NCBI GenBank assembly: GCA_050273025.1
Contig: CP158635.1
Coordinates: 19,282,001 to 19,346,000, forward strand
Direction: 5' to 3'
DNA: 64,000 nucleotides
DNA from: Cenococcum geophilum
Taxonomy: Eukaryota
Shown here: positions 3,372 through 54,468 of the stretch, in pieces
How the letters are laid out: each line of letters starts with the position of its first letter
How positions within the stretch are numbered: position 1 is the stretch's first letter
Notes under the pieces: model-generated
The model's database searches: none
The model's input: only the letters and a program-made list of their open reading frames with translations
Told to the model about the DNA's origin: nothing
Translations under genes and position numbers: made by a program

Positions 3372-3796
3372 TGTAACGGAACCTTGTAGCAAGAACTACG
3401 ATAGGCTTGTTATTGGGCTAGGTGTGTAGGAAATGCAAGTACAAAAGTCAACAACGTAATAACAACTGGTGGAGTGGTTGCCCAATAGATTAACTCTAAT
3501 TGTATTCTAAGAATTACTACAAGAAAGGAACTATCTAGGTAGGGACTAAGGGTCCTTAAATACATAACCGTACTCCTATAAAATCCTTCTTATATATAAT
3601 ATACGTTTTATACATAAGGTATATAAGTTCCTCTTATTCCTCTCGTTTAATACGTAGCATATTATATAACCTTAGTTACTATTCCTCATTATATAATTCT
3701 ATTAGCTTTATCCTAAACCGTGCCTAAATTAACTAACTAGCTTCTTCCGTCTCTTCTCTAAGTAGTTATAACATTATACTTAAAGCGTCCGTAATA
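3372..3796 (-). repeat. 3' LTR of gypsy A1
   Basis: TGTAACGG...CCGTAATA; direct repeat of 10898-11322. Confidence 0.95.
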
Positions 3797-3904
3797 CTAT
3801 CTCCCTCCTTTTTATCTTTATCCTTAAAGATTTAAAATATCTCTAAGTTATTTACTAGAGGTATAATGTCCATCTAATTAATTTGGTTAATATTATTACT
3901 TATT

Positions 3905-4589
3905 ATACCTAAAGCAATTTCTTTTTTACACACCTAACGTTGTGCTCGCACTATTGCTGCAATATTATCTCTTAGTGAGATTATGCCGTCTCTATATTCT
4001 CGTTGTTTGAAAGAGGGGTTGGTTTATGTTGCATTGGCAAACCCATTTTCGTAATAACCGTTCTCTTGCTCGGAGTATACTAAAGCGAATATTCGTTTGT
4101 CCTATAACGTTCGCTCTACTTCTAATGCTAAATATACGCGACCTATTACTCTTAATAGTCGTCTAGTTCCCTAATTGATTTGTCTTAGGGTCTTGTGTTT
4201 AATCTACTACTGCGCGGCTAGATGGTAAACTATCGCAAGCCCTTACTAAGTTGGAACGTTCCCGTAACGCGGAATAAAAGGCCCTAGATGCTTAAATTGC
4301 GGCATCTACTCGTCTGCTTTATCTTAAGAAGGTTTATAAAAAGGTTTATTTTAAGGAGTGGAAACTTATAGAATAAGGTTTGCAGGAACTAGGTAATAAA
4401 AGAACGGATTCTCTTCTAATAGAGAAGGAAATAGATCTAAGTAGTTCGGCAACTGCTCTTCTTAGGTCCCCCTTAGGTAACTCGTTCTTTGGCGATCCTT
4501 TTTTATTAATACTACCTAACCTAATCTCTTCCGATACTCCTATACCTTTCCTATAGCGTTTTTTAAATTCTTTAGTAGCTCCCAGGTAG
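3905..4589 (+). pseudogene. Antisense two-exon accessory gene of gypsy A1 (six-Cys Zn-cluster-like motif plus coiled coil), RIP-degraded; 3' end uncertain
   Basis: Frame from ATA (ex-ATG) at 3905: MPKA...IMPS(PC)SRC.KEGLV(C)VALA.P.S..P.SCSE(C)TKANIR.S(C). Intron 4134-4188 ((G)TACGC...CTAAT...TTAG) restores a Trp codon, followed by an A/E/L/R-rich helical segment. Confidence 0.7.
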
Positions 4590-7500
4590 TCTTAATATAG
4601 CCTATCCACTTAACCTTATACCATGTTTCGTCGTCAATATTCTTATAATTAACGATCTTCGAAACTTGCTATTTATCTTCTTCTTATCCTCTATACGTGT
4701 CTGCCTTATAGCCTAGTGGCTTAATATTCCTATATACTAGCTCTAGTATTATAATATGCTGTATAGGGTAGATCTTTATTTTGGCTAGTAGGTTTAACTT
4801 AAACGTAACTAGTGAAATCCTCTATATAATTTTAAAAGGTCCTAGTCTAACGTAGTCCAATTTCTTACTTAGTCGTTGACTCTTAAAATTTTTATATAGT
4901 AGCCATACTTTATCTCCCTCCTTAAGATCTAGTCCCTTAGATCTCTTAGCATTATAGTACCTTTTCATTCTCTGCTATACTACCTTAGCTATCTCTATAA
5001 GGTCTACATGAAGATTTATTAAATCCTTTATTCTTTCTTTAGCTGTACTACTTGTTTTCTTTACTTGCCGTGGTAATAACGATGTTCTTAGCTTATATCC
5101 ATAATTTGCCTTAAATAGTAATGTGCCTATTCCTTCTTAGGGTGTTATATTGTATGCAAACTGTGTAACTAGTAATAGCGATACCTAATTGTTCTGTATA
5201 TAATTGATATAATGCCTTAGATACTGTTCTAGTATCTAGTTTAATCTTTCTATTTGCCCGTCTGTCTATAAATAATATACGGTAGAAGTTGCTACTTAAA
5301 CTCCTTGCTCCGCTAAGAATACTTCCTAGAATGCTGCTACGAATTTTAAATCTCTATCTGATATAATCTTGCTTAGTGCTCTATATCTTATAAACACTTC
5401 TTTAACGTAGATTCTAGCGACATCTTCCGCTGAGATTTCTTCTGTATATGCTATAAAGTATCCCCACTTTATAAGCTTATCCACTATTACTAAGATCGCG
5501 TTATAATCTTGTCCGGTAACAGGATCTTTTAATTTTGGCAACTTAACAATAAAGTCCCACGATATGACCTCCTATGGTCTCTCTGGTATTTTAATAGGTT
5601 GTAGCCCTCTATATAGCTTATATCTTGTCGGTTTATTCCTTTAGCAATTTAGACACTTTTTAGTGACCCTTCTAGCTATTTTCTAGATTCCGTTAATAAT
5701 ATATTCCTCCTAAAGTCTTAATACTAGGCCCGTAGCTCCACTATGTCCTTAAGTTAGTCCCTTATAGAAGTCTTCCACGAACTACTCTGCTATACTTCTT
5801 AGGATGTATTTCGCTTCTTAATTTTCGTATATATCTGTCTATAGATCTTTTAGCTATACTTCTAGAATTCTATATACCTAAAAGCTTTCCAGTGTCTTGT
5901 AGACTTTCTTTAGTTTATTATTTTCTTAAGTTGCTACAATTTTCGGATAATTGTACCTAATTAATCTATTTATATCTTTTTGCAATAAAGCCCCTAATGG
6001 CTTTTCTTCATTTTATAGTTTAGCTTTACGGCTTAGAGCATCTGCCCGTGTATTGTCTGTACCTTTAGTATACTAAATCTCAAAATGGTATTCCGTAAGC
6101 ATCTCTGCCTATCTAACCTATCTTTAGTTGAGTTCCTTTGTCGTTAGGAATCCTGTTAGGTTTTTATAATCCGTTTTAACTATAAATGGTTTCTTTATGC
6201 CTTGCAAGAATACTCTCTATTCCTTTAGTGCTATAACTATACCTAATAACCCCTTATTGTAGATGTTATAGTTTAGTTCTGGTGGTGTTATCTTCCGACT
6301 ATAGTATGCTACTAGATGCCATCTATCTTAATGCCTTTGCATAAAGCATGCTCCTAGTATATAGTCTAATATATTTGTTTCTATAACTGTCTCTAGTCCT
6401 AGTTAATAGATCTTAAGAACTAGCTCCTAGGTGAATAACTCTTTGACTTTTTTAAAGAGTTCTCTTTACTCCTCTCCCTATGCCTATAGTTCTTCTTTCT
6501 TTGTTAACCGCGTAAATAGCTTAATGTCCTTTAACTACTGCGCTATAAACCTTCTGCAGTAATTACAAAACCCTAGAAACGATCTTAACTGTATAACGTT
6601 CTCTAGTTCCTACCAATTCACTATAGCCTTAATCTTCTTTAGATCTATACTAAGTTGGCCTAGTTTAATAATAAATCTAATAAAATCGGTCTTCCTAATA
6701 AAGAACTCGTATTTCTTAATTGCTACTGGCATCTGTTTTTCTTGTAGTCTCTTTAAGACCTATTTAATATGTTTTCTGTGTTCTTCCTTAGTTATTAAGT
6801 AGATAATAATATTGTCGAGATATACTATAATAAATTTATCTAAGTATTCTCCTAATATATTGTTAATACGCTTTTGGAATGTTACTAATATATTTATAAG
6901 CCTAAATTGTATAACTAATAGTTTATATAGTTCTTCCTTTAACCTAAAGGCTGCCTTTTATTTGTCGCCTTCCTTGATTCTAATCTAATAGTACGCCTAT
7001 CTTAGATCTATCTTTATGAAGATTTACGCATTACCTATCCTGTTTTAGATTTCGCTAATTAAGGGTAAAGGATACCTATCCTTCCTAGTAATGCTGTTTA
7101 ACTGTCTATAGTTAATATACAGCCTTAGTTTACCATTTTTCTTTAGTATAAATAGTACTAGATAACCTACTGATGACTATAATAGTCTAATGTATCCCTT
7201 TTGTAGATTTTCCTAGATAAACTCTTTTAACGCTCTATCTTCTTCCTTGGTAAGCTTATAGATTAGAAAGAACTTTAGACTTATTTCTAGTTCCAACTCT
7301 ATCTTATAGTCCTATACTATATATTCTGATAGCTTTTCACTTTCTAGTAACCATAGTTTTTTGCCATACTTGTGGTATCTCTTTAGTATATAATTTAGTC
7401 CTTTTTCTGTTTCCTTATAGGTTGCTCCTACTTAATACCATACCAACTTGGCTTGTTGTTGCATCTTATGGCATTAAGTATCCCTAATATTAACCTAACC

Positions 7501-10897: not shown

Positions 10898-11322
10898 TAT
10901 AACGGAACCTTATAGCAAGAACTATGATGGGCTCGTTATTAGGCTAGGTGTGTAGGAAATACAAGTATAAAAGTCAATAACGTAATAATAACTGGTGGAG
11001 TGGTTGCCTAATAGATTAACTCTAATTATATTCTAAGAATTACTATAAGGAAGGAACTATCTAGGTAGGGACTAAGGGTCCTTAAATACACAACCGTACT
11101 CCTATAAAATCCTTCTTATACGTGATATACGTCTTATACATAAGGTACGTAAGTTCCTCTCATTCCTCTCATTTAATACGTAGCACATCATGTAACCTTA
11201 GTTACTATTCCTCGTCATATAGTTTTATCGGCTCTATCCTAGACCGTGCCTAAATTAACCAACTAGCTTCTTCCGTCTCTTCTCCAAGTAGTCGTAACAT
11301 CGTACTTAAAGCGTCCGTAACA
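10898..11322 (-). repeat. 5' LTR of gypsy A1
   Basis: TATAACGG...CCGTAACA, followed by TSD CTATA. Confidence 0.95.
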
Positions 11323-14266
11323 CTATATAGCTCGTTTTTAAGGTATTCTATTATACTTCTTTCTAGCTTTAAATTAAGCGTAGGGCTTATAGTATTTATT
11401 ACTAACGTTATTAAACTTAATACTAAGTTTATTTAGGTAGCGTTTAAGGTTATTGTAGTTAAGGTAGCCAAATCGGTAATGCTAAATGGGTAGACTTTTG
11501 TTGTCTTTAATTATATAGAGGACTAATTTTAACGGGTAGTTATACTGTTAAATTAGGTAGAGTTGTTAAACTTTAGGCGCGTATCCTATTACCTCGCTGT
11601 TGTATTTAAGTCCGTGGGTCTTATTATTAAAGAAGACGCCTATTTCCTTAAGTCGGCCTTTAGACAGAAGGTTTACTAGTAAACATTGTAACGGCGCTAT
11701 CGCACGTTACCTGCCAAATTCTACCATATTCTGCCAACCTATAATTAGCCCGCCTAAAGCTAGCGCCTTAGCGGCTTACCTTATATATTTATTTACATCA
11801 GTTCTAGCGACCCCTTTTTCTTCTTTTTAGCTTAGTATCTTTATAAGATAGTATTCTATAAGCTTTAGTTTAGAAGTATTTATACAAGTTATTATATTAT
11901 ACTAAGCTTACCCTACCTTGCCTAGGAAGGCCTTAATAATATCCTACCCTAAAGAAACTTTGTCTGCAACGACGCATCAATACACTATACTTAAACACTA
12001 AAATAACTTTATATTACCTAGGAAGGCTTAGATAATATCCCACCTTATAAGCTAAATAGGACTAGACCTGTACCCCTAGAATTAAAACTAAAGTATATAA
12101 TACCGACGAACCTTAGGAAGCTAATAATGGCACCTAAAGTAAGCTTATTTAAGAGAGCTGCCTCTACCTAAGAGGAACCTAAGATCTAATTAGGATTAGA
12201 AATTAAAGATAATAATAACGTTATAGATATACGCGAGCAGATTCGCGCCCTTATAGCCAGCTAGGAAGCCAATTATCTTAAAGCGAGAAATATATAAGAG
12301 ACCTTATAAGAGATCCTAGAAAGCCTTACAGCCCTATAAAATAGCTTAGCTTCCCCTTTTTAAAGCCCTAACTAACCTATTTACTCCACTAAATGCGATA
12401 TACTAAAGAGTACGGATATAATAATAAAGTAATTAAAGTCTATTAAGCTCCCTAACCCCTACTACTGTCTAACAGGATAGACCCTACCTTTAAGAATTAG
12501 AGGATTTAAGTATAAGGAAAGCTCCGCGTTAATTATAACTATTTCCTTTTTAAAGAAGCTAAAATGCTCTACCTCTTTAGTTAAACTACTAGGGACGCCT
12601 AACGGCACCTTTAAGCTAAGTTTAAGGACGACTTCCCTATTTAATTTATATCTATTAATAAAATAATACGGTACCTAGCGGCTATTTATATTAACCCAAA
12701 TAAAGTACGGGATGCCTATTATAACTATAATCGCCTAATAATAAAACCAAACTAACCCTTTACCGAATTCTAAACTTAATTTCTATACTTTATAGGAGAA
12801 GGCTAGGTTCCCCTTAAGAACTACTAATTAGACCTATATAATAAGCTAATAATCTAGCTATAAAAAAAGATCGCTGTAACCTTAGATAACTTACTAACCT
12901 ATAAAAGACTTATAGCTTATTGCCTATTATTAGACTTAGAACTAAAGCGGATTAACGCCCGCCCTAATTAGTAGAAGTAACTCCGTAATAATTAGAACTC
13001 GCTAACTATACCTATAGGAGCTAGAGTAGGAAGATAAGTTACAACTGCTCTTATACTAAAGGCGGTTATAACTATATACTAGCGAGCCTTGCCCAACTAG
13101 TTACGTACTATACTATTAACTAGCACTCGCTATAAGACTCTAATTAACCCTACCTTGGTTACGTGCTATAACTATAATAAATAGGGTTACTTTACCTTGT
13201 CCTGCCCGGAGCTAAAGGATATAGGCGATATTAAGGAGATAAAGGAAGGAGAAACGTCTAATAAGTTAGGAAAAGAAGAACCTTAGGGAAAGACTCCCCC
13301 CTAGGGTACCCTATTAATCTTAAAGAGATTAATCTTAGTTAGTTAATAGGTGGAAAGTATTTTATAGTTCTATATATAGTATCTTAAAATGAATATAGAG
13401 TTAATATAACTGCCCTTATTAACACTAGAGTAAATAGCTTTGCCTTTATAAATACTGCCTATAAAATAATGTTGCTAAGTTTCTAAATACAGAAGCTATC
13501 CGACTAGAGAAGCCTATTTAGGTAAAAGGCTATAACGGCTAAGCTAATTAGCCTATTACCTACGTTTTAAAGTTATATATTGCTTTTAACGGACAACGCT
13601 AATATAGTATCCCCCTTTACATCCTAAACCTAGGGTCCTATAATATAATCCTTAGACAAAAATAGATGTCCTATTTTAATATTTAGTTAAATATATAATA
13701 AAGACGGTTTATTTAGCCGGAGGATAGACCAAGGTTGCCCTTCTTTATTAGGGAGATCCGAACTAACTGTAAGATACTAGCCGTAAGGGCTAACCCTACC
13801 TACTAGTAGGATGTCTAGGCCTATAACCTAGCCTTTACCTAAGAAGACGCCCACTATAAAGCTAGAAAGAACTCCGTACCGATAAAAATACTCTTTTAAA
13901 GCGCTATGTTTAAAGAGGACTCTATATATAGAAGCGGGATAGATAGTAATATAGATAACGTTTAAATTGCATAGATCTAACTGGTATAGAAAAGAACGTA
14001 TTAATAGGATATAAGGGATAACCTTTAAAAGATATAATAGGAGCTAAAAGGAGTAATAATAATGCTAGTACCCTAGAAGTCCCTAAAGTTATATATGCCC
14101 CTATTATTAGATAACCCCCCTACTATAAATATCGCCGTAATTAGCGCTGTAACATTCCACTTTAATATATACTAGAAGGATAATAAGGTCTATATAATAA
14201 GCCTATATAAAATTAACCAAATTATTAATAATAAAGAGAAAAGGCTAGCTGAGGAAACTAATAAGG

Positions 14267-14515: not shown

Positions 14516-15753
14516 TAAGGAACGAGTTAAACGCCTTTTTCCTACTATTTATATAGAGTATAAGGATGTATTCTTAAAGGCGGCCTTAGATAAGTTACCC
14601 CCTTACTAGATATATAATTATAAGATTTAATTAAAAGCTAATAACTCGCTAGGCTATAGCCCCCTCTACTATTAATTAACGGATAAGCTAAAAGTAATAA
14701 AGTAGTACTTAATTAATAACCTAGATAAAGGGTTTATCAAGTTAAGTTAAGCCCCTTTTACTTCCCCTATCCTATTTATAAAAAAGCCTAATAAAGGCCT
14801 TTGTTTTTGTATTAACTATTAAAAGCTAAACGCTATTACTTAAAAAAACCGGTATCTTATTCCTTTAATTAACGAGATCCTTATACATCTAAGTTAGGTA
14901 AAGATCTTTACTAAACTTAATATCCGCTAAGCTTTCTACCAAATTAGGATAAACCCTATATCTAAAGATTTAATAACGTTTTATACCCATTATAGTTTCT
15001 ATAAATATAAAGTTCTTCCTTTTAGACTAATAAACGGACTGGCTACGTACTAAAGGTATATAAATAACGTTCTTTTTAATTACCTTAATAAATTCTATAC
15101 AGTATACCTAGACGACATTTTTATATACTTAGACAACGAACTTAAGTATTAAGTTTATATTAAAAAGGTTTTAGAGAGACTATAGAATATAGGCTTATAA
15201 GTTAATATTAAGAAATATAAGTTTAGGGTAAAACGTATAAAATACCTTAGGTTTATTATAACTATAGAAGGAATTAAGGTTAACCCTAAGAAGGTAGAGG
15301 TAATCTATAACTAAAAGCCCCTTTATATAGTAAAAGAAATCTAATCCTTTTTTAGTTTTTGTAACTTCTACTACCGGTTTATCCGTGACTACGGAATTAT
15401 AGCAAAACCTCTTATACGACTAACTAAGAAGGACACGCCTTTTGTCTTTAATAATAGCTATATAGAAGCCTTTAAAGAGATAAAGGATCGGCTTACTTCT
15501 TCCTTAATCCTTAATTACTATAACCTAGACCTTAAATTAATGCTAGAAACGGACGCCTTTAATAAGGTTATAATGGGAATCCTATTATAGTTATATCTAG
15601 ATAGTAAATGGTACCCTATAGCTTTTTTCTTAAAGATAATAGACCCGGCTAAGTGTAACTATAAAGTATATAATAAAGAAATGCTAGCTATTATTTAATT
15701 ACTCTTTTAATGGCGTGTAGAGCTTAAAGGTATAAACTCCTAGATTAAGATAT

Positions 15754-18700
15754 TGTTGGTATTACCAGGGATACCTATTGCAATAGGCCGGAATCGTAGT
15801 CAAACAGTCTTTGCTAGTTGATACGATGATAGTTAATTAATTCTTAAAGCTGTGCGAGGGAAAGGGGCTTAAGGCCCCTTCGCTTCGCTTTGCTTCGCTT
15901 ATTATAGCCTAGCGCTATATATAAATATTCTAATATAGGCAGTTCTTTCTTTTATAGCCTAAGACTAGAATATATATAAATTGTACTAGATAGTACTAGG
16001 CAGTATTAGGCAGATTGCTATAGACTACCGTATATTGCCGTATATTGCCGTATATTACCGCAAATTGCCTAGAACTAGGTAATCTTTTCTCCTCTCTTTA
16101 CCCATCCTTCTATTTATACCTTAAGGTAGTTAGTATCTAAGAACTTTTCTAATGCCTTATTAGGGTTAGACTTAGTTATAGTATCTACTAAGTTATCTTA
16201 GCCGTTAATCTAGCGGATCTTTAGTAGTTCTTTTCGCTTATATAATTAGTAAAGGGCTATAATGTTAATTATTAGACGCTTTTTTTTAGTAGTTCTAAGC
16301 TTAATAAGGCATTTTTAAAGTAAGTAAGAGTTAGTATAGACAATGGTTAGAATTTAGGAAAGACTAAGTTAATTTATAATTATCTTAAGAGTAGTATTAA
16401 TAATAATTGCTATATTCACTCCTTCTATTATGCCATAGATCTCTAATACTAGGACGCTCCTAGTTACTCAATTGCTCTTAGTTAAGCTATAATAAATTAA
16501 GTTTCCCTTAATCTAGAATTCCTCCTCTATTGTCTTAGTCTTATTTATAATAATAATTTTATATCTAATCTAGGAACTAAAATCTTTATTATTTATAAAT
16601 AATCTATTAATAAAGATAAAGAGCTTTACTATAGATAAGTTAAGGGTAATATAGTTGATGCCTTAATCTATATGCTTTATCTATTATGTAAGTCTCTTAT
16701 TTAAAGCAGTAATATTAGCTTTAGTTAGATTCTAATGTTAGGCAGCAACTAAGAGGTTAAATACGGCCTCTGGTTAATAAATAGTTATAATATAGGCTTT
16801 ATAAGCCCGTTACTCTTTATAGTCGTTTTAGAAGTTAGGAGATTTAGCATCTATATACTTAAGCTTCTTTACCTATTCCTTTTAACGTAACTAGATAGTA
16901 TCCTTATATTATATTAGTATATATCTATTAAAAATTAATAGGTTTTCTGGTGCTAGGGCTTCTTTATATCACGGCTCGAATAAATGCCTCTAAACCGAAG
17001 CTTAAACAAATGCTATATTACGAAGATACTAAGCTAAAGAGAAGGAAAAGGGGTCGCTAGGACCGATATAAACAAATATATAGGGTAAGCCGCTAAGGCG
17101 CTAGCTTTAGGCGGGCTAATCACAGGTCGGCAGAATATAGCAGAATTTGGCAGGTAACGTGCGATAGCGCCGTTACATCACCCCCCTCTTTAAAAGAAAG
17201 CCTGCCCTCAGGCTTAGTTAGAAAAAATAGGGTAGCACTAGGCTTATAAACGTAGGATTATAAAAATATAAGATAAGGAGATAAAGGGGACACGAGTCCG
17301 TCCTAACTAAGTATAAAGGGCAATTATAGGCTAAGTGGAAGCACTAGGCTAGAAAGAGTAGCCGCTAAAAGTCTTGGCACAGATCTAACTAATTAGACAA
17401 CTTTAACCGGCGGTTAAAGTTCCTAGATATCTGAAATTTTACGGTACTGGCAGAAAACGGCAGAATATGGCAGAATTTGGCAGATAGCTGTATTAGGGCT
17501 TTGGGGCGTTTTTATCCCTATATTCTTCTGGTAACTTATTATCTTTATTATACCAGTATTCTATCTATTCGTCTAAGTACTTTAGGGGTCTAGGCGTATT
17601 AGGGTATTGGTTATAGAATTCTTTAAGCTTCTAGGGGTAGCTTATAAAGTTCCACGTAGGGTACCAGGTTAGGTTAGGATTATAGCCCTTCTATTAAACA
17701 CGGTATTTTAGCGCTCCCCGTACTATCTTATAGGCTAGTATTTTATTAACCTCCTATTTATTATTACCGTTTACTTAAACTAGTAGGGGAGGCTCGTTCT
17801 TTTGTCTAGGCAATAAGTCGTTTATAGCTTTCCGTAACTTATCTAGTAAAAAGATAGGGTAAACCCTAATTAAGTCTAGGAGCTTTATCTTGTATAAGTT
17901 GCCTATCTTTTTAAGAACCTTATACAGTCCTACTATTTAGTAGTTTAGCTTACGGCTGGGTTGTTTAGTCCTCTAATTCCTTATTATAACCTAGACTATA
18001 TCGCTAGGGGCAAAATTGGGCTCTTAACGGTGTTTGTTCGCCTGCTATTCTATTAACCTCTAAGCTTTTTCTAGGTTCTTGCGGGCTACCGTTTAGGCCT
18101 CCTCTAATCGTTTAGTGTACTATTAGGCCTTAGTATAGGATAGCTTCTTTCGTACAGTCTAGGGTTTTTCTAGCCTTTTCCAGTTAAAGCTTATGCGGGG
18201 TAAGTATCTCATTTCTAGCTAAATTGGGGCAAACCCTATGGAGTTATGGGGTAGGGTTGCTTGCGCGTAGTCTATTAAGGGTAGTAATTTAGACCAGTTA
18301 TCCTGGAAATAGTTAACAAAGGGCCTAAGCCTCTAGTCTAGGTACTAATTTACGATCTTTATCTGACCGTCTATTTAGGGGTAATAAGCTATAGAAAGCT
18401 TTAGCTTAATGCCTAGGATCCGGGTAAACTTATTCCAAAAGGCCGATATAAACTATAGCCTATAATTAGACATAATAGTATCTGGTAGTCCGTAGATTTA
18501 GTAAACGTAATAGACATATAGCCGGGCTGCCTCTTTGGTATTAATGTTCTTATAATATGGAATTAAGAACGGGCGTTTACCAAAGCGGTTAACTATAACT
18601 ATAACTATATCGTATCTGTTATAGTCCCTAGGTAGTTTATAAAAGTCTATAGAGATATACTACTAAGGGCGCTCTAGTATCAGGAGTGGCTTAAGTAGTC

Positions 18701-27700: not shown

Positions 27701-28110
27701 TTCTTAGCTCGCTAATTCTATATAAGTCCTTAGAAATCTTACGTAGCTTCTTTAACACTTGCTAAAGGTATATACTAGCTTCCTCTAGGAGCCTTTAAAG
27801 TTACTTCGTCAATTACCTCAACACATTCCTATAAAGGGGTAGGGATGCGATCCCGATATTTATAGTTTAGCCTCTTCTAGATAGATTCCTTGCTATTCTG
27901 TGGTTAATAATTAACAACCACTAATTAGTATTAGTATTACTAGGGATACCTATTATAATAGGCCGGAATTGTAGTTAAATAGTCTTTGCTAGTTAATACG
28001 ATGATAGTTAATTAATTCTTAAAGCTGTGCGAGGGAAAGGGGCTTAAGGCCCCTTCGCTTCGCTTCGCTTCGCTTGTCGTGGCCTAGCGCTATACGTAAA
28101 TATTCTGACA
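15754..28110 (-). mobile_element. Copia LTR retrotransposon of GalEa type, family C copy 1, interrupted by gypsy B2
   Basis: 182-bp LTRs 15754-15935 and 27929-28110; TSD GATAT/GATAT; palindromic ACTAATTAG in place of a PBS at 27920-27928; integrase (YLDGK.VL.VVDS...W.TL...W.TYQG) precedes RT, which precedes RNase H (SVLASEIYG), i.e. Copia order. Confidence 0.92.
16967..23156 (-). mobile_element. Ty3/gypsy chromovirus, family B copy 2, full length, inverted relative to B1
   Basis: 211-bp LTRs 16967-17177 and 22946-23156; TSD CTTTA/CTTTA; RT AYLDDI ~19975-19992; reverse-complement match to B1 throughout. Confidence 0.95.
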
Positions 28111-31100
28111 GATATATATAGATTATAAAGCCCTAGAGTACTTTATAACTATAAAGCAACTTACTAAATAATAAGCCTAGTGGGCTAAAATACTCTTCTA
28201 ATTTTTTTTTATAATTATATATCGTTCTAGTAAGTAAAACTCTAAGGCTAGTGCCTTAACCTATAGATTCTTAAGAAGCTAGACTTCTAGTAAAATAAGC
28301 TAGCACTAATAAAGAAGTTGTTAGATTAGCTAATAGGGCTAATTAACCGCCTCTTAATTATAAACCGTATAGTTAATGCCCTAAGGGCCCTCCGCGAATA
28401 AGCTGTAAAAGGAGACCCCGATTTTAAAATGGAGGAAGGATTACTTCTATATTAGGAGGGGCTTATAGTCCCTAATATTAATAATTTATAGACTAAACTA
28501 ATTCGCGAAGCTTATTGCTAAGTTTTTATAGTATACCCTAGTAAGAATAAGACCCGTAAAATTATTAACTACTACTACTACTGGCTAAGAATAGTTATAG
28601 ATATTAATTAATATATATAGAACTGCGAAGACTGCCGGAGAGCTATAATCCTATAGGATAAGACCCTAGGACTACTTAAGCTACTCCTAATACTAGAGCG
28701 CCCTTAGCAGTATATCTTTATAGACTTTTACGAACTACCTAGAGACCGTAATGGATACGATATAGTTATAGTTATAGTTAACCGCTTTAATAAATGCCTA
28801 TTTTTAATTCCCTATTATAAAAACATTAATGCTAAAGAGGTAGCCTAGCTATATATCTATTACGTCTACCAAATTTATAGATTACTAGATACTATTATAT
28901 CTAATTATAGGCCATAGTTTATATTGGCCTTTTGGAATAAGTTTACCTAGATCTTAGGCATTAAGCTAAAGCTTTCTATAACTTATTACCCCTAGATAGA
29001 CGATTAGATAGAGATTATAAATTAGTACCTAGATTAGAGGCTTAGGTCCTTTATTAATTATTTCTAAGATAACTGGTCTAAACTACTACTCTTAATAGAC
29101 TACGCGCAAGTAACCTTACCCTATAACTTTATAGGGTTTGCCTTAATTTAGCTAGAAATGGGATATTTACCCTATATAAGCTTTAACTAGAAAAGGCTAG
29201 AAGAACCCTAGACTATATAAAAGAAGCTATTCTATACTAAGGCCTAATAGTACGCTAAATGATTAGAGGAAGCCTAGATAGTAGCCTATAAGAACTTAGA
29301 AAAAGCTTAGAGGTTAATAGAATAGTAGGTAAATAAATACTATTAAGAGCCCGATTTTGCCCCTAGTAATAGGGTTTAGGTTATAATAAAGAATTGGAAA
29401 ACCGAATAACCTAGCTATAAGCTGGACTACTAGATAGCAGGACTGTATAAGGTTCTTAAGAAGATAGGTAACTTGTATAAAATAAAGCTCCTAAATTTAA
29501 TTAGGGTTTACCCTATCTTCTTACTAGATAAGTTATAGAAAGCTATAAATAACCTATTGCCTAGATAAAAGAACGAGCCTCCCCTACTAGTTTAAGTAAA
29601 CGGTAATAATAAATAGGAGGTTAATAAAATACTAGCCTATAAGATAGTATAGGGAACGCTAAAATACCGTATTTAATAGAAGGGCTATAATTCTAACCTA
29701 ACCTAATACCCTATATAGAACTTTATAGGCTGCCCCTAGAAGCTTAAAGAATTTTATAACTAATACCCAAATACACCTAGACCCCTAAAGTACCTAGACA
29801 AATAAATGGAATGCTAGTATAATAAAGATAATAAGTTACCGGAAGAATATAGGGATAAAAACGCCCTAAAGCCCTAATATAGCTATCTGCTAAATTCTGC
29901 TATATTCTGCCGTTTTCTGCTAGTACTGTAAAATTTTAGATATTTAGGAACTTTAACCACCGGTTAAAGTTGTCTAATTAGTTAAATCTATGCTAAGACT
30001 TTTAGCGGCTATTTTTTCTAGCCTAATGCTTCCACTTAGCCTATAATTACCCTTTATACTTAGTCTGGACGTACTTATATCCCCTTTATCTTCTTATCTT
30101 ATATTTTATAATCCTATATTTATAAGCCTAGTACTACCCTATTTTTAACTAAGCCTAAGGGCAGGATTTCTTTTAAAGAGGGAGGTGATGTAATGGCGCT
30201 ATTGTACATTACCTACCAAATTCTGCTATATTCTGCTGACCTATAATTGGCCCGCCTAAAGCTAGCGCCTTAGCGGCTTACTTTATATATTTGTTTATAT
30301 TGGTCCTAGCAACCCCTTTTCCTTCTCTTTAGCTTAGTATCTTTATAAGATAGCATTCTATAAGCTTTGGTTTAGAAGTATTTATACAAACCGTTACAAA
30401 TATAGTATATAAAAAACATTATATATAGTAAGCGTGCTTCTATAGCTTCTATTAGGTAGTGCGGTTTATATAAAGACGGACCCTTTACCTACTAAATAAG
30501 CCCTATAGGGACCAACTGTCCCTAATAAGGTGTCGTTATTAACGTAGTTAAAAAAAAGTTCGCGATCTTTGTAGTAGTAGACAGTAGCGGCGGTATTAAG
30601 GATAAAGTCGTACCTACTTAGTTAAGCTTGTACTACTGCTGCTACAAGCTCTTGTTATAGATTTGCGTTAAGCTTAGCTTAACTAGAATATTCATTAAGC
30701 TAAATAGACGCTTAAGTCCTAGGCCTCTTCCTTACGCGGATTTTATTGCCAATTTCCTTTAGAGCGTTATCTAGCTTCCTCTCCTAATAGTCTTCTTTGT
30801 AGTGCGTAGTTCTATTAAATCTTATATAGTTAGGGTGCTTACATATCCCAACTAGTGCTATTAGTATAGAGACTTCTTAATTAAGTTTGCTGTTAAAAAC
30901 AATAAGTTCCTTGCCTAAAGCTTATAGGTTAGTGTTTTCCTATATTTAATTTGTTTATTTTATTGTTTTAAACTAAGTGTATTTAGTAAAGTTAACCCCG
31001 TGTAGAAGGGCTGCTTAGGTAAAAAGTTTATAGTTAATAGGTTAGTTTATTTTAATAAGACGATTAAGGTTTAATATAATATAGGAGATAAACTCCTCTA

Positions 31101-32019
31101 CGTTCTTAAAGTCTTATACACGTTTAGTAAAGAGGGTAGCCATAATATTAATAACAGCTGCTAGATTAAAATCCTTAAAACGTTCTTTTAAGGCCTTCTA
31201 TTTTTTAAGTGCCCGTCCGGTGTTTAATATAAACGGCTTATAGATATTACTAACGCTCTAGTTAATAAAACCGGCTATATAGGCTAGCTGTTCCTCGTGT
31301 TTCTCCTATTCCTTTACTAGCTTAGCTAGTTTAATTTTTGGCTATTTACTAGTAAAGCCTAAATCCGCCTATTTCTCCTTAATCGACTTAAGTATAGGAA
31401 GAGGCCGTGGTGGATTATTAAGGACCTACTCGATATTCCTAGATCGGAGGTAGTTTTATACGTTAATACTAAACATTGGCTAGTTTTCCCATTTAATAAG
31501 CTTTTAAATAGAGGCTTGGGCGGTACGTTCATCGCTTATATTAGCGGGGCTTTAATTATAGGTAGTTTGTAGTAGGCAGTCTATAGGCCTTATTAGAAAC
31601 AATATTGTTAGATTAGTTTCCTTTATAGGGAGTATAGGTTTTTTAACTTAATATATTCCTTAGCTGGTGTAGGCAGTTCTAATAAGCTTTTTTTAATTCC
31701 CTACTAATGCGGATATTATAAAGCTTTATTCTTAAAACTCTATCGTTCTATAATAATAATAGTAAGGTTATCTACTAAATAAGAGGTCCTCCTAAGCCTC
31801 TAGTGCCGCTATTTGGTTATAGACTATATTAGGCTCATCCTTAGTAGGATCCTCTTATGCATTTAGCGTAGAGTCCGTCAGCAGCTACGTAGCTACTTAT
31901 TGTAGGTTTTTGGCGTTATAAGTTGGTAAACGTTCACCGACTTCTGTTAACGCCCGTATAGTAATATTGCGACAGCAATTATCGTAACAATAATAAAGTA
32001 ATTAGATTTAGCTTATTAG

Positions 32020-32041
32020 GCGCGAACCCAGGCTTATAACC
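32020..32041 (-). promoter_or_regulatory. Primer-binding site of Copia A (half-tRNA-Met type)
   Basis: Minus strand GGTTATAAGCCTGGG directly after the LTR end; one RIP change from the GGTTATGAGCC PBS known from copia/Ty5-type elements. Confidence 0.75.
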
Positions 32042-32222
32042 TATTAAATTAAGGTTATGTAGCTAAAAACTCTGTGTATTGCTTATTTTCTATATAGGTG
32101 GTTGAAGAGATTTTAAGGAACTTCGACCGCCGGTCGAAGTTGTCTGATTGGTCAGATTCCTGCCAAGAGCTTTCTCCCACAAGTCTCATCACGTGATATC
32201 GTTGCGGGCTTGTTTTCCAACA
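32042..32222 (-). repeat. 5' LTR of Copia A (181 bp), only partly RIPed
   Basis: Minus strand begins TGTTGGAA and ends TTTAATA (ex-TTCAACA); contains CCAAT and TATATA; abuts the PBS. Partner LTR is outside the window. Confidence 0.75.
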
Positions 32223-32435
32223 ACTCGATTGCCCTAAATACACGAAGAACTCTCTGGAGAGAAAAGAATTGACAACAGTGTGAGTGTAAATAGTTGACAG
32301 CGTTGCCCGTCACCCGGGCAACCACCTAATCCTGCGAGCGACATAAGAACAAATACAGAAGCGCAGGCTAGGCGGCCGTAGGCCGCCGCCTAAGCATAAT
32401 AGAGGGCTATGCCCCATGACACCCACCTATGTTGA

Positions 32436-32690
32436 GGAGCAGAAGAACAGGAGCAGGAGCAGGAGCAGGAGCAGAAGCAGGGGCGCAAGCGGGAGCAAGA
32501 GCAGAAGCAGGAGTAGAATGCAAAGCGTCAAGAGAATCGGGATCAGGAGCGGAAGCAGGACGGTGGCAGGAGTGGAAAGAGAAGTGGAAGCATCAGCAGA
32601 AGCGTCAGCAGAAGCGGAAGTAGAAACGGAAGTCAGCAAGAGTAGAAATGGAAAACGCCAGCGGGAGGAGGGGCAGGAGCAGAAATAGAA
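32436..32690. repeat. Degenerate hexamer tract (AGCAGG/AGCAGA/AGTAGA)n
   Basis: Visible GAGCAGGAGCAGGAGCAGGAGCAGAAGCAG run; it generates the low-complexity ORFs in three frames. Confidence 0.85.
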
Positions 32691-33075
32691 ACGTCAGCTT
32701 GTCTTACCGAGTCCGAAGATTATTGTCCCAAGACGCCACCGTGGGAGCGCTATTATTGAAGTCTCCGCCGAGCTTCCCAGCCGGTCGCAGACGGCGGCCA
32801 CGACTAGCCGTTCCACAGCTTGTGGTATGGCTAATCGTAATTGAAGAAATTAAGGAAATATGGTCCCATCAACAAGGACGATGAAGGGACACCGGAGCCG
32901 ACGAGGTTCAATAGTCATCCGCATTGTCCACTATTTTCAGCAAGGTGTCCGAGCACTGGCCATCCACTGGCTATCTAAGCATGCGGAGCGGCGTCGAAAG
33001 GCAGTAGTAGTTTGAACGTGATGCCGGTTTGACGGATAGAGCTATGAAAATTATTTCAACATCATTGAGACCCAC

Positions 33076-34899
33076 TCATTTGATCCAGAACTCCAAAAAA
33101 TCCTCTGCCTTTGCGCTTTGAAGATATTCACCGTTCATAATTCCATGAACATACGCTTCGCCAATAAAACTGCAGTACCCTTCCTCGCGGTCCCCTGGTC
33201 GCAGAACGTAAGCAACGGCTCCCCCACGCAGTATGCACACCCAGTCCCCAACCTGTGCCTTTTGAGGTGCCAGGCCGAAATATCCGTTCTTGGTCGTAAC
33301 GAACGCTCTCTTCGCACAGCGAGTGATTGCTGGAAAGCTGTAGGTGTTAATATGTCGCGACCTTTCCGCTTCCGACAATAAAGAAAAATCTAGAGATGGA
33401 CGACCTATCCAAGCGTCGAAGTGAGACTTGAAGCTGGCGGAAATATTATCTCCTGCGAAATTTCTGTCTGCGACAACAGTTCTCCAAAACGCTTCCGTGT
33501 AACCGCAAGTGTTCGCGTAGGACTGCTGCTTGTGTGAAATGACATGTTCTTCCCACCGCCAGCATGCTTGAAGAGTCAATCTAGCGCGAAACTCCTTTGG
33601 TAGAGTCAGCTCGCTGGCATCATCTCGGTAATCCGGGACAATAGTTTCGTTGACGAAATCAATAGTATCGACGATGAATCCGCGGACAGCCAGGATTTCA
33701 TGGCTGCGTGAGAAATGAAAAAAGCTGTATTCTACCGGGTTCTTCTCTTCGAGACGCCAACGCCCGACACCTGGTCCTCTGTAACGACTTTTTTCTGTGT
33801 ATGCACAGAATTCAAGGCCTACCAGAGGCACAAATGCCGTAGAAGTATTTGTTGTCCAATCCGGGCACCAGGAAGGAAGCTGAAATGCAGCATTTTTCTC
33901 ATCCTGCGCAAACTGCAGATTCAGCAAGCCCGATTCTCTAAAGAGAAGTACGCTGGCCTCAAGCACAACCTCGCGATCGGATTTGACGAACTCATCAGTA
34001 CCAGACTTTTTCTCGTAGTCGACTTCGATCTCTTCCTTACTGCTCTCTCTAATCAGGCCCAATAGGGCGTATATTCTATCCCTCAGGTACTTGCACTTGA
34101 ATCCTCTCGTGCCGGCGATCCACCAACTCAAAGCTCCATTCAACCATTCTTTTGAGTTTCGCCAAAGCAAGTCACCGTACGGGACATCGCTGAAAGGTCG
34201 TAGAGTAGAGAAACGCTCGATGTCCGTCTCCCTATGTTGCTCATGCAAGTATTTCAGGTCGACAAATCTTTCAAGTTCCACCTCTTTTGCGCCACACCTA
34301 ACCAATGGGCGGGGTGAAAGCATAGCTTCTTGGACAATCCACATCCTAGTCCACCAATCTCTCTTGAAGAGCGGGTCAAGGGCTAGCCAAGATGGATCTT
34401 CCGGGGTGTACTGTTGAAAATCTTCATCGCTGATGGTTGACACCAGATCCATGGCGAGGTCGCTATCATCTGCATTCTCGCCCAGCCATATCAATGTGAG
34501 GTCAGCGTTTGCATAGATATCCTTCATCATCTGCACCTGGTGGCTCTTTTCTGCCGAGTCTGTTTGGTTGATGCATACGGCATCGATCCAAATATTCCGG
34601 GCTTTGCCTTCGCTATGAAGACGACGCAATGCAATGGCCAAGTTGCTTGTGATGGTCATGTCGATACCATTAAGGCGCATTTGGGGGCAAAATTTCTCGT
34701 CTCCCCAGACATATGACAACGCTGAGTACTTTTCACCATCTTGCAAAGATATGACTCGAAGTTCCCCAGAAAGTGGGTCGTCAGAGGAAGATGAGAAAAG
34801 CGATAGCAGTCGAATTTGCTGCTTGGAGGGATCTAGAGGCTGAGAGTTGTAAATCTTCTTGGCCGCCTCGACCTTTACAAGGTTGTCTGCCGTTGTCAT
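33076..34899 (-). CDS. HET-domain protein, HET-6-like (heterokaryon incompatibility / regulated cell death), 607 aa, intronless, intact
   Basis: HET motifs IRLL, YSALSYVWG, NLAIALRRL, IWIDAVCINQ.D..EK..QV.MM..IY..A, WLG, WWTRMWIVQE; HET-6-type C-terminal motifs RDRIYALLGL, LPSWCPDW, GYFGLAP, GD.VCIL.GG, FIGEAYVHGIMNGE. No RIP signature by eye. Confidence 0.95.
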   Translation of the reverse strand: MTTADNLVKVEAAKKIYNSQPLDPSKQQIRLLSLFSSSSDDPLSGELRVISLQDGEKYSALSYVWGDEKFCPQMRLNGIDMTITSNLAIALRRLHSEGKARNIWIDAVCINQTDSAEKSHQVQMMKDIYANADLTLIWLGENADDSDLAMDLVSTISDEDFQQYTPEDPSWLALDPLFKRDWWTRMWIVQEAMLSPRPLVRCGAKEVELERFVDLKYLHEQHRETDIERFSTLRPFSDVPYGDLLWRNSKEWLNGALSWWIAGTRGFKCKYLRDRIYALLGLIRESSKEEIEVDYEKKSGTDEFVKSDREVVLEASVLLFRESGLLNLQFAQDEKNAAFQLPSWCPDWTTNTSTAFVPLVGLEFCAYTEKSRYRGPGVGRWRLEEKNPVEYSFFHFSRSHEILAVRGFIVDTIDFVNETIVPDYRDDASELTLPKEFRARLTLQACWRWEEHVISHKQQSYANTCGYTEAFWRTVVADRNFAGDNISASFKSHFDAWIGRPSLDFSLLSEAERSRHINTYSFPAITRCAKRAFVTTKNGYFGLAPQKAQVGDWVCILRGGAVAYVLRPGDREEGYCSFIGEAYVHGIMNGEYLQSAKAEDFLEFWIK

Positions 34900-36687
34900 G
34901 GCTAACAGGGCGAGATAGCGGGCAGGCTGATCACAGGCTGACCTCCGGTCCTAGGACGATGTAGGGACGAGACCAAGCTAGGAGCAGGCCGGCAAATCAA
35001 CCAACCCAACGCAAATTAGGGTCAAATTGCGCTGTCAAGATTGAGCCAATATTATTGCTCTAGATTGCCTACAGTGCACCCACCAAAAAAAAAAAACCCC
35101 CCGAGAAGAACGCTCGCTACGGTTTTGCCTCTTGGTTGTTGCAGGCGTCCGTATACTACGACTAAAATTATTAGTGCGCCCTCTACTGGCCTGACACCAA
35201 GGAAGCCGACGATGGGACAGAAATGAAGTCTGTCACAAATGTCTTTGCTTCCTAAGCGTTCGCTTAGAATACTTAACAAGGTCACTGACGGCCGCTGATG
35301 TGTGGAAGGGACAGGGAGCCAGGGTCTATTTGTTTTTCCGATTTCGAATGAGAATACTAGACATGACGAAGCAGATGCGAGGGAGTTTGGAAGATGAGTG
35401 TTTGCTCCAATCGCTCCACTCATAGTTGTTCGCGCCCGGTCTAAGCGAGAGAACGAACCAAAGGCAAGGCTGAAATGATCACTTTCTCGCAAAGGCCGAT
35501 AGAGAAGGGTCTGGGAGGGCTGATGTTTATATAGTGTACCCGTAAGAATTTAGCCCTGTTGGAATGTTGCCACCGGGTGGTTCCAGCACTTCCACCTGGA
35601 TTCCAGAAGCTTCACTCTCCGCTTTACCTGCCACGTGACGCCGATTTACAGACCTCGTAAGAAATAGCTCATCTCAGACGGGAACTCAGAGATTGTTCAA
35701 CGCACCCGTCAACAAATGCTCGTAGTATTCAATTGAATTTATTGAGTATATAATCGTGGTGTCGAGGCGGGCTAGCCCCTTTTTTGCCCCTTGGTAGCTA
35801 CAGGCCTCCGTAGTACTGCAAATGATGCTGACGCTAAACCAGATCTAGAGTAGCGGGCGCGGAGATGTCCGCGCAATAAAGTGGGGCTAAGATTCTGACA
35901 GAGAGTTTGAGGGTGAAGCCGATTTTGCAAGCGACTGTACACTGTATGACGCAATCCGAAATTGCGGGGTTGATCACTGATCTACCTATCATTTGTCACA
36001 GCCCGCTAAACTTAATAGGTCAGTGCGGCCTTCTAAGCCAGGACAGTATGTGCTTCTTACCAATTTACGTGCTGGGGGTGAATGGTGTTGGGCTAAACTA
36101 CGCAGCTCCGACCTAGCTCGCACGACCACCTAGCTTGCACGACCAGGGCTGCAATGTTAATTACGCACTAGTATCCCTTGATTAAGACTGGTAGAACACC
36201 TAACGTACGCCACCTGCATAGTTCTAGAGATCCCACTACTTTGTTTAAAGATGGGAAACTAAAGAAGTGTTGGGGTCTTGTGCACGTCATGGGCGTGACG
36301 CAGAACATGCAAGTCATTCTCAAGGGCTGCCTCGCAGTTTGGATAGCCACACCTGATTAATCGTCCCTTTTTAAGTTAATTAAGGTACTTACGGTAGAGA
36401 TGTCTCTTTAGAATGGCCCGGCTGTAGAACTAGTGCATATATTCTTCTATTAGCTTCGCTTTATCCCTAAGACAAAATACTTAAAGCCCGAGATCCCCTT
36501 AGAGAAATGTAAACGCGTTTAACCTCCATTATTACTATTAAAGTTTCTTAGCGTTTATATAAAATAGCCTATCTTATAAAATATAAAAGAAATTTTCTAA
36601 GACTACTTACTGTAATTAATCCTTAGTGTTAAAACTAAAATTGCACTATTTATAGAGTAAATTTATGTTTTAAACAGTTGTAGCGCT

Positions 36688-36981
36688 CTATAAGACCGTA
36701 CCGTATATATCGTTAGTATATTATTATAGGTGCATCTTATACGCTAAAACAACCTAATAAAGGTTATATTAGATCTTTTCCCCTTCCCTAATATTTATAA
36801 GGTGCTTCCGCTTAAAGTATTTACTAAGATTACCTAGGGTATAAAACGAATATATATGCTATTTAATTAATAGGTTTTTATTACCTAGATAAAGGAAATA
36901 TATCTTTAGCCTCTTCTTACTATATATTAATACTTTAGCTACTTTTAAGGCTTTAACTTAAGAGTTAATCTTGGCCTTATC
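36688..36981 (-). pseudogene. Starship captain (DUF3435 tyrosine recombinase), C-terminal Cys/His segment, RIP-degraded
   Basis: Reads KKRLKIYFLYLGNKNL...FYTLGNLSKYFKRKHL...I*YNLY*VVLAYKMHL**YTNDIYGTVL*; de-RIP KRPKICFLCLGNE.L...F.TPGDLSKHFKRKHL...CDLC..VL.HKMHLQ.HA..IHGTVS*; stop at 36690-36688. Confidence 0.85.
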
Positions 36982-37509
36982 TGTAACGAAGCCTTATAGT
37001 AGGAACTACAGTGGACTTATTAATAGGCTGGGTATATAGGTATAGAATAGTCAACAACGTAATAATAACTAGTGGAATAGTTGCCTAACAGATTAACTCT
37101 AATTATATTCTGAGATTTACTATAAAGGAGAGAACTATCTAAGTAGGGACTATGGTCCTTTAAATATACAACTATACTCCTAAGAAATCCCCTTAGTACG
37201 TAAGGTACGTATACTCTACCTACTCTATTATAGATCTTATAGATCCTATAGATTATATAGATTACGTTATATAACCTTAGTTACCATTCCTCGTTATTTA
37301 GCTCTATTAGCTCTATTCTAGACCGCGCCTAAATTAACTAATTAGCTTCTTCTAACTCCTCTCCTAGTAGTTATAATATTGTACTTAAAGCGTTTATAAT
37401 ACTATCTCCCTCCTTTTTATCTTTGTCCTTAAAGATTCCTAATATCTTTAGGTTGTTTACTAGAGATATAATATCCGTTTAATTAATTTAGTTAATATTG
37501 TTACTTATT

Positions 37510-38214
37510 ATACCTAAAGTTCCTTCCTCTTCTTTAATCGCTTGTTATGCTTAAACTATTACTATAATATTATCTCTTAGTAAAATTATACCGTCTCCAT
37601 ATTCTTATTGTGTAAAAGAGGGGTTAGTCTATATTATATTAGTAAGTCTATCTTTATAATAACCGTTCTCTTACTTAAAGTATACTAAAGCGAATATTTG
37701 TTTATCCTATAACGTTTACTCCGTCTTTAATGCTAAATATATATAACCTATTACTCTTAATAGCCGTCTAGTTCCTTAATTAATTTATCTTAGGGTTTTA
37801 TATTTAATCTGCTACTATACGGCTAAATAATAAACTGTTAGTGGCTCTAGTAAAGTTATACTATTCTTATAATGCTAAATAGGAGGCTATTAATGCTTAG
37901 TAACGGGCCCTTAAGTCTCGTCTTATAGCGTCCACTTAGTTAATTTATCTTAAAAAGGTTTATAAGAAAGTCTATTTTAAGAAGTAAAAACTTATAGAAT
38001 AAGGTTTATAGAAACTTAGCGATAAAAGAACGGATTCTCTTCTATCTAAGAAGGGAATAAATCTAAGTAGCTTAGTAACTACTCTTCTTAGGTCCCCCTT
38101 AGGTAACTTATTCTTTAGCAATTTTTTTTATTAATGCTACCTAACCTAATCTCTTCTAGTACTCCTTTACCTTTTTTATAGCGTTTTTTAAATTCCTTAG
38201 TAGTTCCTAGGTAG
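37510..38214 (+). pseudogene. Antisense accessory gene of gypsy A2, homologue of 3905-4589
   Basis: Same frame, Cys-motif positions and intron location as in A1; in-frame 21-nt insertion at 37901-37921. Confidence 0.65.
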
Positions 38215-48200: not shown

Positions 48201-48324
48201 TTATATCGCTATCTATACTACTTTTAGTATAGCTACTAAAGTATATACGGCTTATCCGTAAGGAAGTATCTTTTTATTACTATATTATAATAGCCCTTTA
48301 TATATTATTCTTTAAATCTAATAA

Positions 48325-54300: not shown

Positions 54301-54468
54301 GGGATACCTATTATAATAGGCCGGAATCGTAGTTAAATAGTCTTTACTAGTTAATATAATAATAGTTAATTAATTCTTAAAGCTATGCAAGGAAAAGGGG
54401 CTTAAGGCCCCTTCGCTTCACTTCGCTTCGCTTGTCGTGGCCTAATGCTATACGTAAATATTCCGATA
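48325..54468 (-). mobile_element. GalEa-type Copia family C copy 2, full length, RIP-degraded
   Basis: 182-bp LTRs 48325-48506 and 54287-54468; TSD AATAA/AATAA; RT VVLKPLY(G)IP(E)A(G)T...STYDPCFL...MQT(DD)TLI ~49590-49770; colinear with C1. Confidence 0.93.

Follow-up and report, generated by a model that had tools for sequence, protein, structure and literature searches.

A RIP-inactivated antisense gene with a GT-AG intron in a Ty3/Gypsy chromovirus of Cenococcum geophilum, possibly encoding a small zinc-dependent DNA-binding regulator

The window analysed here, a stretch of 64,000 nucleotides from contig CP158635.1 of Cenococcum geophilum, contains two copies of a gene that runs opposite to gag-pol in a Ty3/Gypsy retrotransposon. 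The gene is made up of two exons separated by a short GT-AG intron, and purifying selection has acted on its plus frame. Both copies present in the window are dead and not expressible as protein. The explanation that we favour, with a modest degree of confidence, is that they are the remains of an accessory antisense gene killed by RIP, which would have encoded a small zinc-dependent DNA-binding regulator. The parts of this explanation do not stand equally firm: that this was a real, selected antisense protein gene can be held with high confidence, and that its product was a DNA-binding regulator of the zinc-cluster kind is put forward tentatively, at slightly less than an even chance.

Repeat-induced point mutation (RIP) has left its marks on the window, which is AT-rich fungal DNA with a GC content that is mostly 0.23–0.40 and a single island of ∼0.50. 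RIP yields transitions only; it converts the Cys codons TGT and TGC into Tyr codons, and a GT splice donor into AT. Copy 1 of the retrotransposon is on the minus strand; the plus strand carries the antisense frame. When the two LTR regions were aligned pairwise, the 3′ LTR was placed at ∼3374–3799 (the similarity ends at ∼3800–3813) and the 5′ LTR at ∼10900–11325, both on the minus strand. A longer extent of the 3′ LTR, corresponding to repeat family D2, was rejected because the similarity over the additional stretch is at chance level (61–66%). The polypurine tract of copy 1 occupies positions 3800–3819 of the minus strand, where it reads aaagataaaaaggagggaga immediately before the LTR start. 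At the end of pol there is a chromodomain remnant (4540–4668, minus strand; the ORF reads ...WYKVKWIGYIKTTWELLKNLKNAIGKV), which overlaps the antisense gene in its final codons. Copy 2 of the retrotransposon has been broken up by other insertions, and its 3′ end lies at ∼36979–38250. Its antisense gene, located through pairwise alignment and translations, spans positions 37510–38181 of the plus strand, the end being approximate since it was computed from the alignment. This second copy of the gene is more heavily RIPed; its intron lies at 37739–37793, and it bears a 21-nt insertion and a 1-nt deletion.

In copy 1 the antisense gene lies on the strand, and in the interval between the chromodomain and the 3′ LTR, that the preliminary description had assigned to it, as the window coordinates make plain. 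All of its features are on the plus strand. Exon 1 (3905–4133, delimited from the translations) contains three stop codons and specifies a basic N-terminal stretch followed by a region with six Cys positions. The first start codon (3905–3907), an ATG that RIP has turned into ATA, is 106 nt from the end of the LTR, close to the ∼110 bp expected. A second ATG, at 3983–3985, is intact. The six-Cys region (3995–4105) has the spacing C-x2-C-x6-C-x13-C-x2-C-x8-C, the six positions being residues 5, 8, 15, 29, 32 and 41 when counted from the ATG at 3983; positions 1, 3, 5 and 6 have been RIPed to Tyr. The gaps of 2, 6, 2 and 8 residues agree with the initial reading, but the middle gap, first given as 12, is of 13 residues both in the window and in the un-RIPed element L040 described below. 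The intron follows (4134–4188, 55 nt), with its donor GT changed to AT by RIP and its acceptor TAG kept. Exon 2 (4189–4556) carries four RIP stops ahead of its stop codon TAG (4554–4556), and can be divided into a long-helix region (∼4189–4400), a variable linker and a conserved C-terminal motif. The RIP damage to this copy therefore comes to seven stops in total, plus the ATG to ATA change and the GT to AT change at the donor. A de-RIPed consensus (5% rule), which had been suggested as a check, made the frames readable but left two stops in exon 2, and was over-corrected (GC 0.60).

Natural relatives of the gene were sought in databases using the broken window frames as queries, with stops read as X. 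A search with the tail returned P0001 (E = 8.9e-30) and two further stop-free proteins (P0001–P0003), and the helical tail that had been read from the window after de-RIPing proved to be a near letter-for-letter match to two stop-free natural relatives, P0001 and P0044. A HMMER search of 1.84 billion representatives matched 27 proteins, the longest of 151 aa; the full-length gene model was absent among these 27. Searches with exon 1 returned 15 proteins (RIPed copies, with E values down to 1.6e-21) and 80 proteins. In 79 of the 80 exon-1 database relatives, the upstream ATG is the start and the protein begins MP...; the upstream start is therefore probably the real one, and its use adds the basic stretch ahead of the Cys module.

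Further gene copies were drawn from metagenome loci. When metagenome contigs were scanned, 599 pattern matches emerged; confirmation was obtained for 255 of these, and the 80 best were retained as loci. The profile for the locus search was built from eight aligned sequences. Most loci belong to family A, which comprises RIPed copies of the window's own family. Family B consists of five short contigs (L027, L071, L072, L075 and L078). The third lineage is represented by L040, an un-RIPed 7.5-kb element with a GC content of 0.48. This sequence is circularly permuted: its two ends overlap by 3 bases within the intron and, once joined there, give a sequence that aligns to family A without gaps. 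The preliminary description had proposed looking for the same antisense ORF in un-RIPed relatives, and in L040 both exons are indeed open, with the six Cys and a GT-AG intron in place. Exon 1 of L040 (7255–7545) retains all six Cys (MPPIRSSLSDRRNRLVTTILSLGVIMPSCSRCAEKKLVCVAIAAPSGRQPSSCAECTKSNMRSSCNVRSVSDAE), and exon 2 (1–387) is open over 127 codons and ends at the stop position of the window copy. According to a first-order Markov simulation, frames as open as these would arise by chance with probabilities of 0.06 (exon 1) and 0.022 (exon 2).

The element that carries the gene is a Ty3/Gypsy chromovirus, as indicated by the pol domains of L040 together with the LTR pair and the chromodomain remnant of the window. 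The pol region of L040 matches the Pfam families gag-asp_proteas, RVT_1 (2.3e-32), RT_RNaseH (1.8e-35), Integrase_H2C2, rve and Chromo (3.1e-08), and its gag matches Retrotrans_gag and zf-CCHC; the equivalent of the polypurine tract is at 7162–7183. The family is very abundant in at least three organisms and is present in many metagenome contigs. The C-terminal part was matched in 97 copies, and 94 of them have the chromodomain in antisense orientation within 250 nt, so that in most copies the layout is that of an antisense extra ORF situated after pol and before the 3′ LTR. Two of the other three are too close to the edge of the locus and one has no chromodomain. No antisense gene lying outside an element was seen among the copies examined.

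The intron was compared in an alignment of 31 sequences (L040, five from family B and 25 from family A). Its donor is GT in 11 of them; in 19 RIP has made it AT, and in one it is deleted. The acceptor AG is kept in all 31. Intron lengths are 55, 61, 127 and 130 nt, and a branch-like site can be recognised in each lineage (CTGAC in L040, CTAAT in family B and GTAAC in family A). The 55-bp intron with donor, branch site and acceptor that had been predicted from the window has its un-RIPed counterpart in L040, where it reads GTGCGT...CTGAC...TAG and is likewise 55 nt long. The database proteins P0019 (138 aa) and P0022 (90 aa), both of which begin at an internal Met, run across the predicted junction (...SCDVRSVS(N/D)AEWS(Q/R)VQSAAAKLDGELS...). 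Across the junction (...SVS(N/D)AEWS(Q/R)VQSAAAKLDG...) the exons are joined just as the GT-AG prediction has them, with a Trp codon split as T/GG. P0020, unlike P0019 and P0022, reads through intron sequence. The contigs behind these three proteins measure 941, 1193 and 965 nt. P0019 and P0022 derive either from cDNA or from intron-less DNA; in both cases the intron is cut out with precision, and intron-less (spliced) versions of the gene are present in public data. In a single raw RNA run, 40 reads fell on the stretch, all of them less than 90% alike, and none joined the exons across the intron, a result that weighs neither for nor against the gene. The donor, the branch-like site, the acceptor and the intron-free products together are those of a spliceosomal GT-AG intron. 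Since the intron stands in antisense orientation in the genomic RNA, that RNA retains it and every round of retrotransposition copies it. The survival of an antisense intron through retrotransposition, as first proposed, fits with its presence in all three lineages, with GT or AT at the donor in 30 of the 31 sequences and with the acceptor in every one. The intron also offers a simple marker with which to separate the antisense mRNA from the genomic RNA.

To measure selection on the frame, bases were recoded as purine or pyrimidine and the transversion changes were counted per codon position among the three lineages, namely L040, family B (five copies) and family A, the last represented by the 25 copies of highest GC content among 80 near-full ones. 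Only transversions were counted because RIP makes transitions alone, and columns with gaps or with a family majority below 80% were dropped. A codon-position bias had been set beforehand as one of the tests on which the gene would stand or fall, and an excess of changes at third positions was found. In the N-terminal extension, changes at positions 1, 2 and 3 numbered 2/18, 2/20 and 8/15, respectively; in the Cys region, 3/47, 3/48 and 10/42; and over nt 1–198 of exon 2, 5/57, 3/57 and 15/48. For the Cys region and the helix combined the values were 8/104, 6/105 and 25/90 (chi-square, P = 4e-6). The pol coding region, used as a control and read in the minus frame, gave 22/286, 12/285 and 37/284 (P = 6e-4). 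Over nt 199–300 of exon 2 the counts were 4/26, 7/25 and 7/22, and from nt 301 to the end 6/26, 5/26 and 5/26; the bias is therefore absent over the last ∼180 nt of this exon, which specify the linker and the C-terminal motif.

These counts bear on two readings in which the plus frame does not code. One of them denies the gene altogether: few stops would arise in a plus strand poor in A, and the conservation would reflect cis-acting DNA near the polypurine tract or the LTR. The region is in fact A-poor (0.17), several frames are open in L040, and the window copies are full of stops, all of which this reading would accommodate. It does not explain why the third-position excess is specific to the plus frame, why the six Cys are conserved, or how there come to be sequences from which the intron has been precisely removed. 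It also fails to account for relatives of only 37–66% identity, across which the stop position and the C-terminal motif SPL..FF.DPS.S.LP....DTP.PF persist; the block RL(E/K)KVREKVRSKE.(K/R)LVEQGL.EL is conserved in these relatives as well. The absence of a gene was already disfavoured, and is the least probable of the readings weighed here.

According to the other, the frame under selection would be that of the sense strand, as a long C-terminal extension of pol past the chromodomain, and the plus frame would be its shadow. The pol frame of L040 is open through exon 2, the intron, exon 1 and the polypurine tract, to ∼7050 in the LTR. Given the plus-strand codons, the chance of an open minus frame is 0.014 over exon 2, and the four intron lengths are all equal to 1 modulo 3; both points speak for this reading. 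Over exon 1, however, the same chance is 0.56, which is unremarkable. The plus frame and the minus pol frame share their wobble positions over exon 1, so that the bias in this exon cannot separate the two strands. Exon 2 is informative: plus position 3 faces minus position 2 and plus position 2 faces minus position 3, so the signal in this exon belongs to the plus frame. Over nt 1–198, changes are rarest at the minus wobble position (3/57) and commonest at minus position 2 (15/48), the opposite of what selection on pol would leave. In addition, the minus frame of family A has TAA at one codon in 81 of 81 sequences and TAA or TAG at another in 81 of 82, with zero non-stop variants, and the conserved acidic stretch of the minus frame is the polypurine tract itself. 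A selected extension of pol is accordingly very unlikely, and the one seen in L040 is regarded as lineage-specific or fortuitous.

With the antisense gene as the preferred reading, the protein can be considered. Among 95 exon-1 proteins, 92 have Cys or Tyr at all six positions, with a spacing of 2-6-13-2-8 that is invariant in them; of the three exceptions, two are truncated and the other has Phe at position 2. Cys itself is found at positions 1 to 6 in 51, 48, 26, 17, 74 and 63 of the 92, respectively, and all six are intact in four database proteins and in L040 and L029. The possibility that the third Cys was ancestrally a Tyr, which had been suggested by 17 RIPed copies, was ruled out, Cys being present at this position in L029, L043 and L040. 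In most lineages a Lys-Lys pair lies between the second and third Cys. For the part that follows the Cys region, AlphaFold was run on P0019 with 18 aligned relatives and predicted one 79-residue helix (residues 12–90; pLDDT ≥90 at 74 residues) with a disordered tail. A coiled coil had been claimed at this place. The long helix after the Cys region is borne out by the prediction, but 5–19% of shuffled sequences reach the heptad pattern; because the pattern is not significant, the helix is not called a coiled coil here. The product is a protein of ∼200 aa with a basic N-terminus, a six-Cys module with the spacing of a Gal4-type zinc cluster, a predicted helix of ∼80 residues and a disordered tail that ends in a conserved hydrophobic/acidic motif.

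Whether the six-Cys module is a zinc cluster was addressed by comparison with domain and structure databases. The usual spacing of the Zn(II)2Cys6 cluster is C-x2-C-x6-C-x5-12-C-x2-C-x6-8-C, and with 13 residues between its third and fourth Cys the module here exceeds this range by one. The resemblance to Zn(II)2Cys6 clusters that had been noted at the outset holds for the 2-6-n-2-8 spacing, but it is not matched by the scores. Against Pfam Zn_clus (PF00172), exon 1 of L040 scored 14.1 bits (E = 0.052) and that of L029 19.1 bits (E = 0.0015), both below the gathering threshold of 21 bits, which places neither in the family. Zn_clus is nevertheless the Pfam family matched by most exon-1 members (7 of 34 at E ≤ 1, the best at 0.016). 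Across the antisense-gene sequences no Pfam family was matched at threshold, and the RIPed window copies matched none. DUF3716 (PF12511) was also below its 22-bit threshold (12.2 bits, E = 0.18), and was matched by two of the 34 members (best E = 0.034). A profile search of PDB sequences gave no matches at E ≤ 10; the single-sequence search matched PPR1 (1pyi) weakly (E = 1.3). The AlphaFold model of exon 1 was unreliable (mean pLDDT 48). An Atlas search returned neighbours in unnamed ascomycete clusters with scores of at most 0.86, to be taken as leads only; at rank 10 (score 0.80) there was a cluster in which 28% of the members carry DUF3716. Exon 2, P0019 and P0022 matched no bZIP family at E ≤ 1, which gives no support for an HBZ-like bZIP protein. 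No host zinc-cluster genes were matched in the metagenome loci, and a reading by eye of the L040 LTR revealed no pairs of CGG-type sites.

The same results can be read differently, the antisense gene being real and selected but its protein not a transcription factor. The Cys module might then bind zinc to some other end, such as binding RNA or other nucleic acid, helping in particle assembly or integration, or interfering with host silencing, and the helix and tail would serve for contacts between proteins. That every Zn_clus match is sub-threshold, that DUF3716 is matched weakly and appears in the Atlas search, and that the profile search found no relative in the PDB would all be expected of such a protein. 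Antisense extra ORFs have, moreover, been described with no assigned function in the part of the literature consulted (PMC7264820). On the other side, Zn_clus is the commonest of the Pfam matches. The order of the parts also argues against a non-factor protein: a basic stretch, a six-Cys 2-6-n-2-8 module and a long helix follow one another as they do in the DNA-binding regions of Gal4-type proteins. A role other than that of a transcription factor is, on balance, unlikely, though it merits consideration. A zinc-cluster regulator is the best candidate mechanism available, one that depends on architecture and on sub-threshold matches.

On the explanation favoured here, the gene is an accessory gene that a clade of ascomycete Ty3/Gypsy chromoviruses carries in antisense to gag-pol, in the interval that separates pol from the polypurine tract. 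An antisense transcript, starting in or near the 3′ LTR, would give rise to the small zinc-dependent DNA-binding protein, and this in turn might act on transcription of the element itself or of the host. The preliminary description had put forward a regulator or anti-silencing factor driven from the 3′ LTR, and either activity stays at the level of a proposal. LTR retrotransposons are usually thought to need gag and pol only; a conserved, spliced antisense third gene, with a product resembling a small DNA-binding factor, would, if the proposal is right, provide the element with a regulator of its own, as in complex retroviruses. With a family so abundant, whatever activity the protein had may have left its mark on these genomes before the copies were silenced by RIP.

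Several known systems can be compared with the gene. Zn(II)2Cys6 proteins bind two zinc ions and DNA containing CGG, usually as coiled-coil dimers. The antisense protein differs from the Gal4-type factors of this class in being very small, in its middle gap of 13, in having no middle homology region and in its sub-threshold scores. It resembles them in its six Cys near the N-terminus, in their 2-6-n-2-8 spacing, in the Lys-Lys pair of most lineages, in the long helix predicted to follow and in its weak Pfam matches; a basic stretch, a six-Cys module, a long helix and a short acidic/hydrophobic end are presumably what a minimal Gal4-type factor would look like.

A second comparison is with HBZ of HTLV-1, an antisense gene near the 3′ LTR that gives a spliced transcript and a small factor-like protein with a long helix. 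HBZ belongs to the bZIP proteins and comes from a vertebrate retrovirus, and since no bZIP family was matched here the likeness is one of analogy only. It is conceivable, if rather doubtful, that the chromovirus clade carries its own Gal4-like zinc-cluster factor, produced from a spliced antisense mRNA with its start at the 3′ end of the element and tuning the LTRs as a functional counterpart of HBZ. Such a factor would tune the LTRs of the element and many solo LTRs, and could rewire host genes near insertions.

Antisense ORFs in the same position and orientation are found in the plant LTR retrotransposons RIRE2, Grande, Retand and PvRetro13, where they are conserved within families and, in the portion of the source available, have no assigned function (PMC7264820). 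These elements belong to another kingdom, and a sequence relation with them is not expected.

The closest precedent is fungal. Zhao et al. in 2011 (Virology 417:248) reportedly described brtn as an additional antisense gene of Boty-like Gypsy elements in Botrytis. No cluster among the 20 database clusters looked up bore the BRTN name or an NCBI source, and the term 'brtn' is absent from two supplements of PMC8365987. In the published excerpts seen, brtn is part of BcGypsy1 and missing from the current B05.10 annotation (PMC8365987); it lies antisense between pol and the 3′ LTR, is found in Sclerotinia as well and has no assigned function (PMC7264820). A 'brtn-106' is mentioned in an extract of another paper (PMC4227169), and a Monilinia transcript is reported, in the section seen, to match both pol and BRTN (PMC5987419). 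A search of the full-text literature, which for the most part does not take in subscription journals, returned no antisense zinc-cluster gene in a fungal retrotransposon and no precedent other than brtn. The likeness, an antisense extra gene between pol and the 3′ LTR, is one of layout, with brtn as these excerpts describe it. On those descriptions the antisense layout has already been published as brtn, and the gene of the window is possibly a brtn relative. It adds, in any event, to the class of antisense extra genes already known from LTR retrotransposons.

The repeat-induced point mutation (RIP)-affected Ty3/Gypsy chromovirus family that carries the antisense two-exon gene was found to be extremely abundant in the DNA assemblies of three organisms (runs X1, X5 and X15), in which 24158, 15787 and 2717 contig pieces, respectively, matched window positions 3600-4750 at 80% or more. 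Parts of this same segment were also present in root and soil metagenome runs. In the window, the second copy of the element (36979-57163) is interrupted by insertions nested within it, which belong to one or more further repeat families; one such family has copies at 15750-17177, 27925-28224, 39775-40454, 48321-49477 and 54283-54582. RIPed repeats also lie on all sides of the window's sole GC-rich island (about 32000-36000; GC about 0.50), inside which sits an intact 624-aa open reading frame (33076-34950, minus strand) whose product carries a heterokaryon incompatibility (HET) domain (Pfam, E = 1.8e-34).

Across the three lineages, represented by the un-RIPed 7.5-kb metagenome element L040 and by families A and B, the intron of the antisense gene measures 55, 61, 127 or 130 nt, each length leaving a remainder of one when divided by three. 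In one family-A copy, A_L009_18_909, the last part of exon 1 has been deleted together with the donor site of the intron, so that 32 nt now separate the two aligned boundaries of the intron; this copy is a dead variant of the gene.

The sense pol frame of L040 contains no stop for about 290 codons beyond the chromodomain, crossing first the antisense gene and then the polypurine tract before it enters the LTR; this open frame is absent from family A. The gag frame of L040 (1001 aa; 3703-6708, minus strand) rendered Pfam matches to Retrotrans_gag, Ty3_capsid and zf-CCHC, all within its first 352 residues, and the ~650 charged, Ser/Thr-rich residues between that point and pol matched no Pfam family. 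In the U3 of the L040 LTR (about 6960-7030, read in the minus-strand sense), a tandem array of four GGAACGTG units and several copies of ACGTAC lie directly upstream of a TATTTAAG box. Inspection by eye revealed no obvious CGG pairs. These repeats are possible candidates for enhancer or binding-site repeats.
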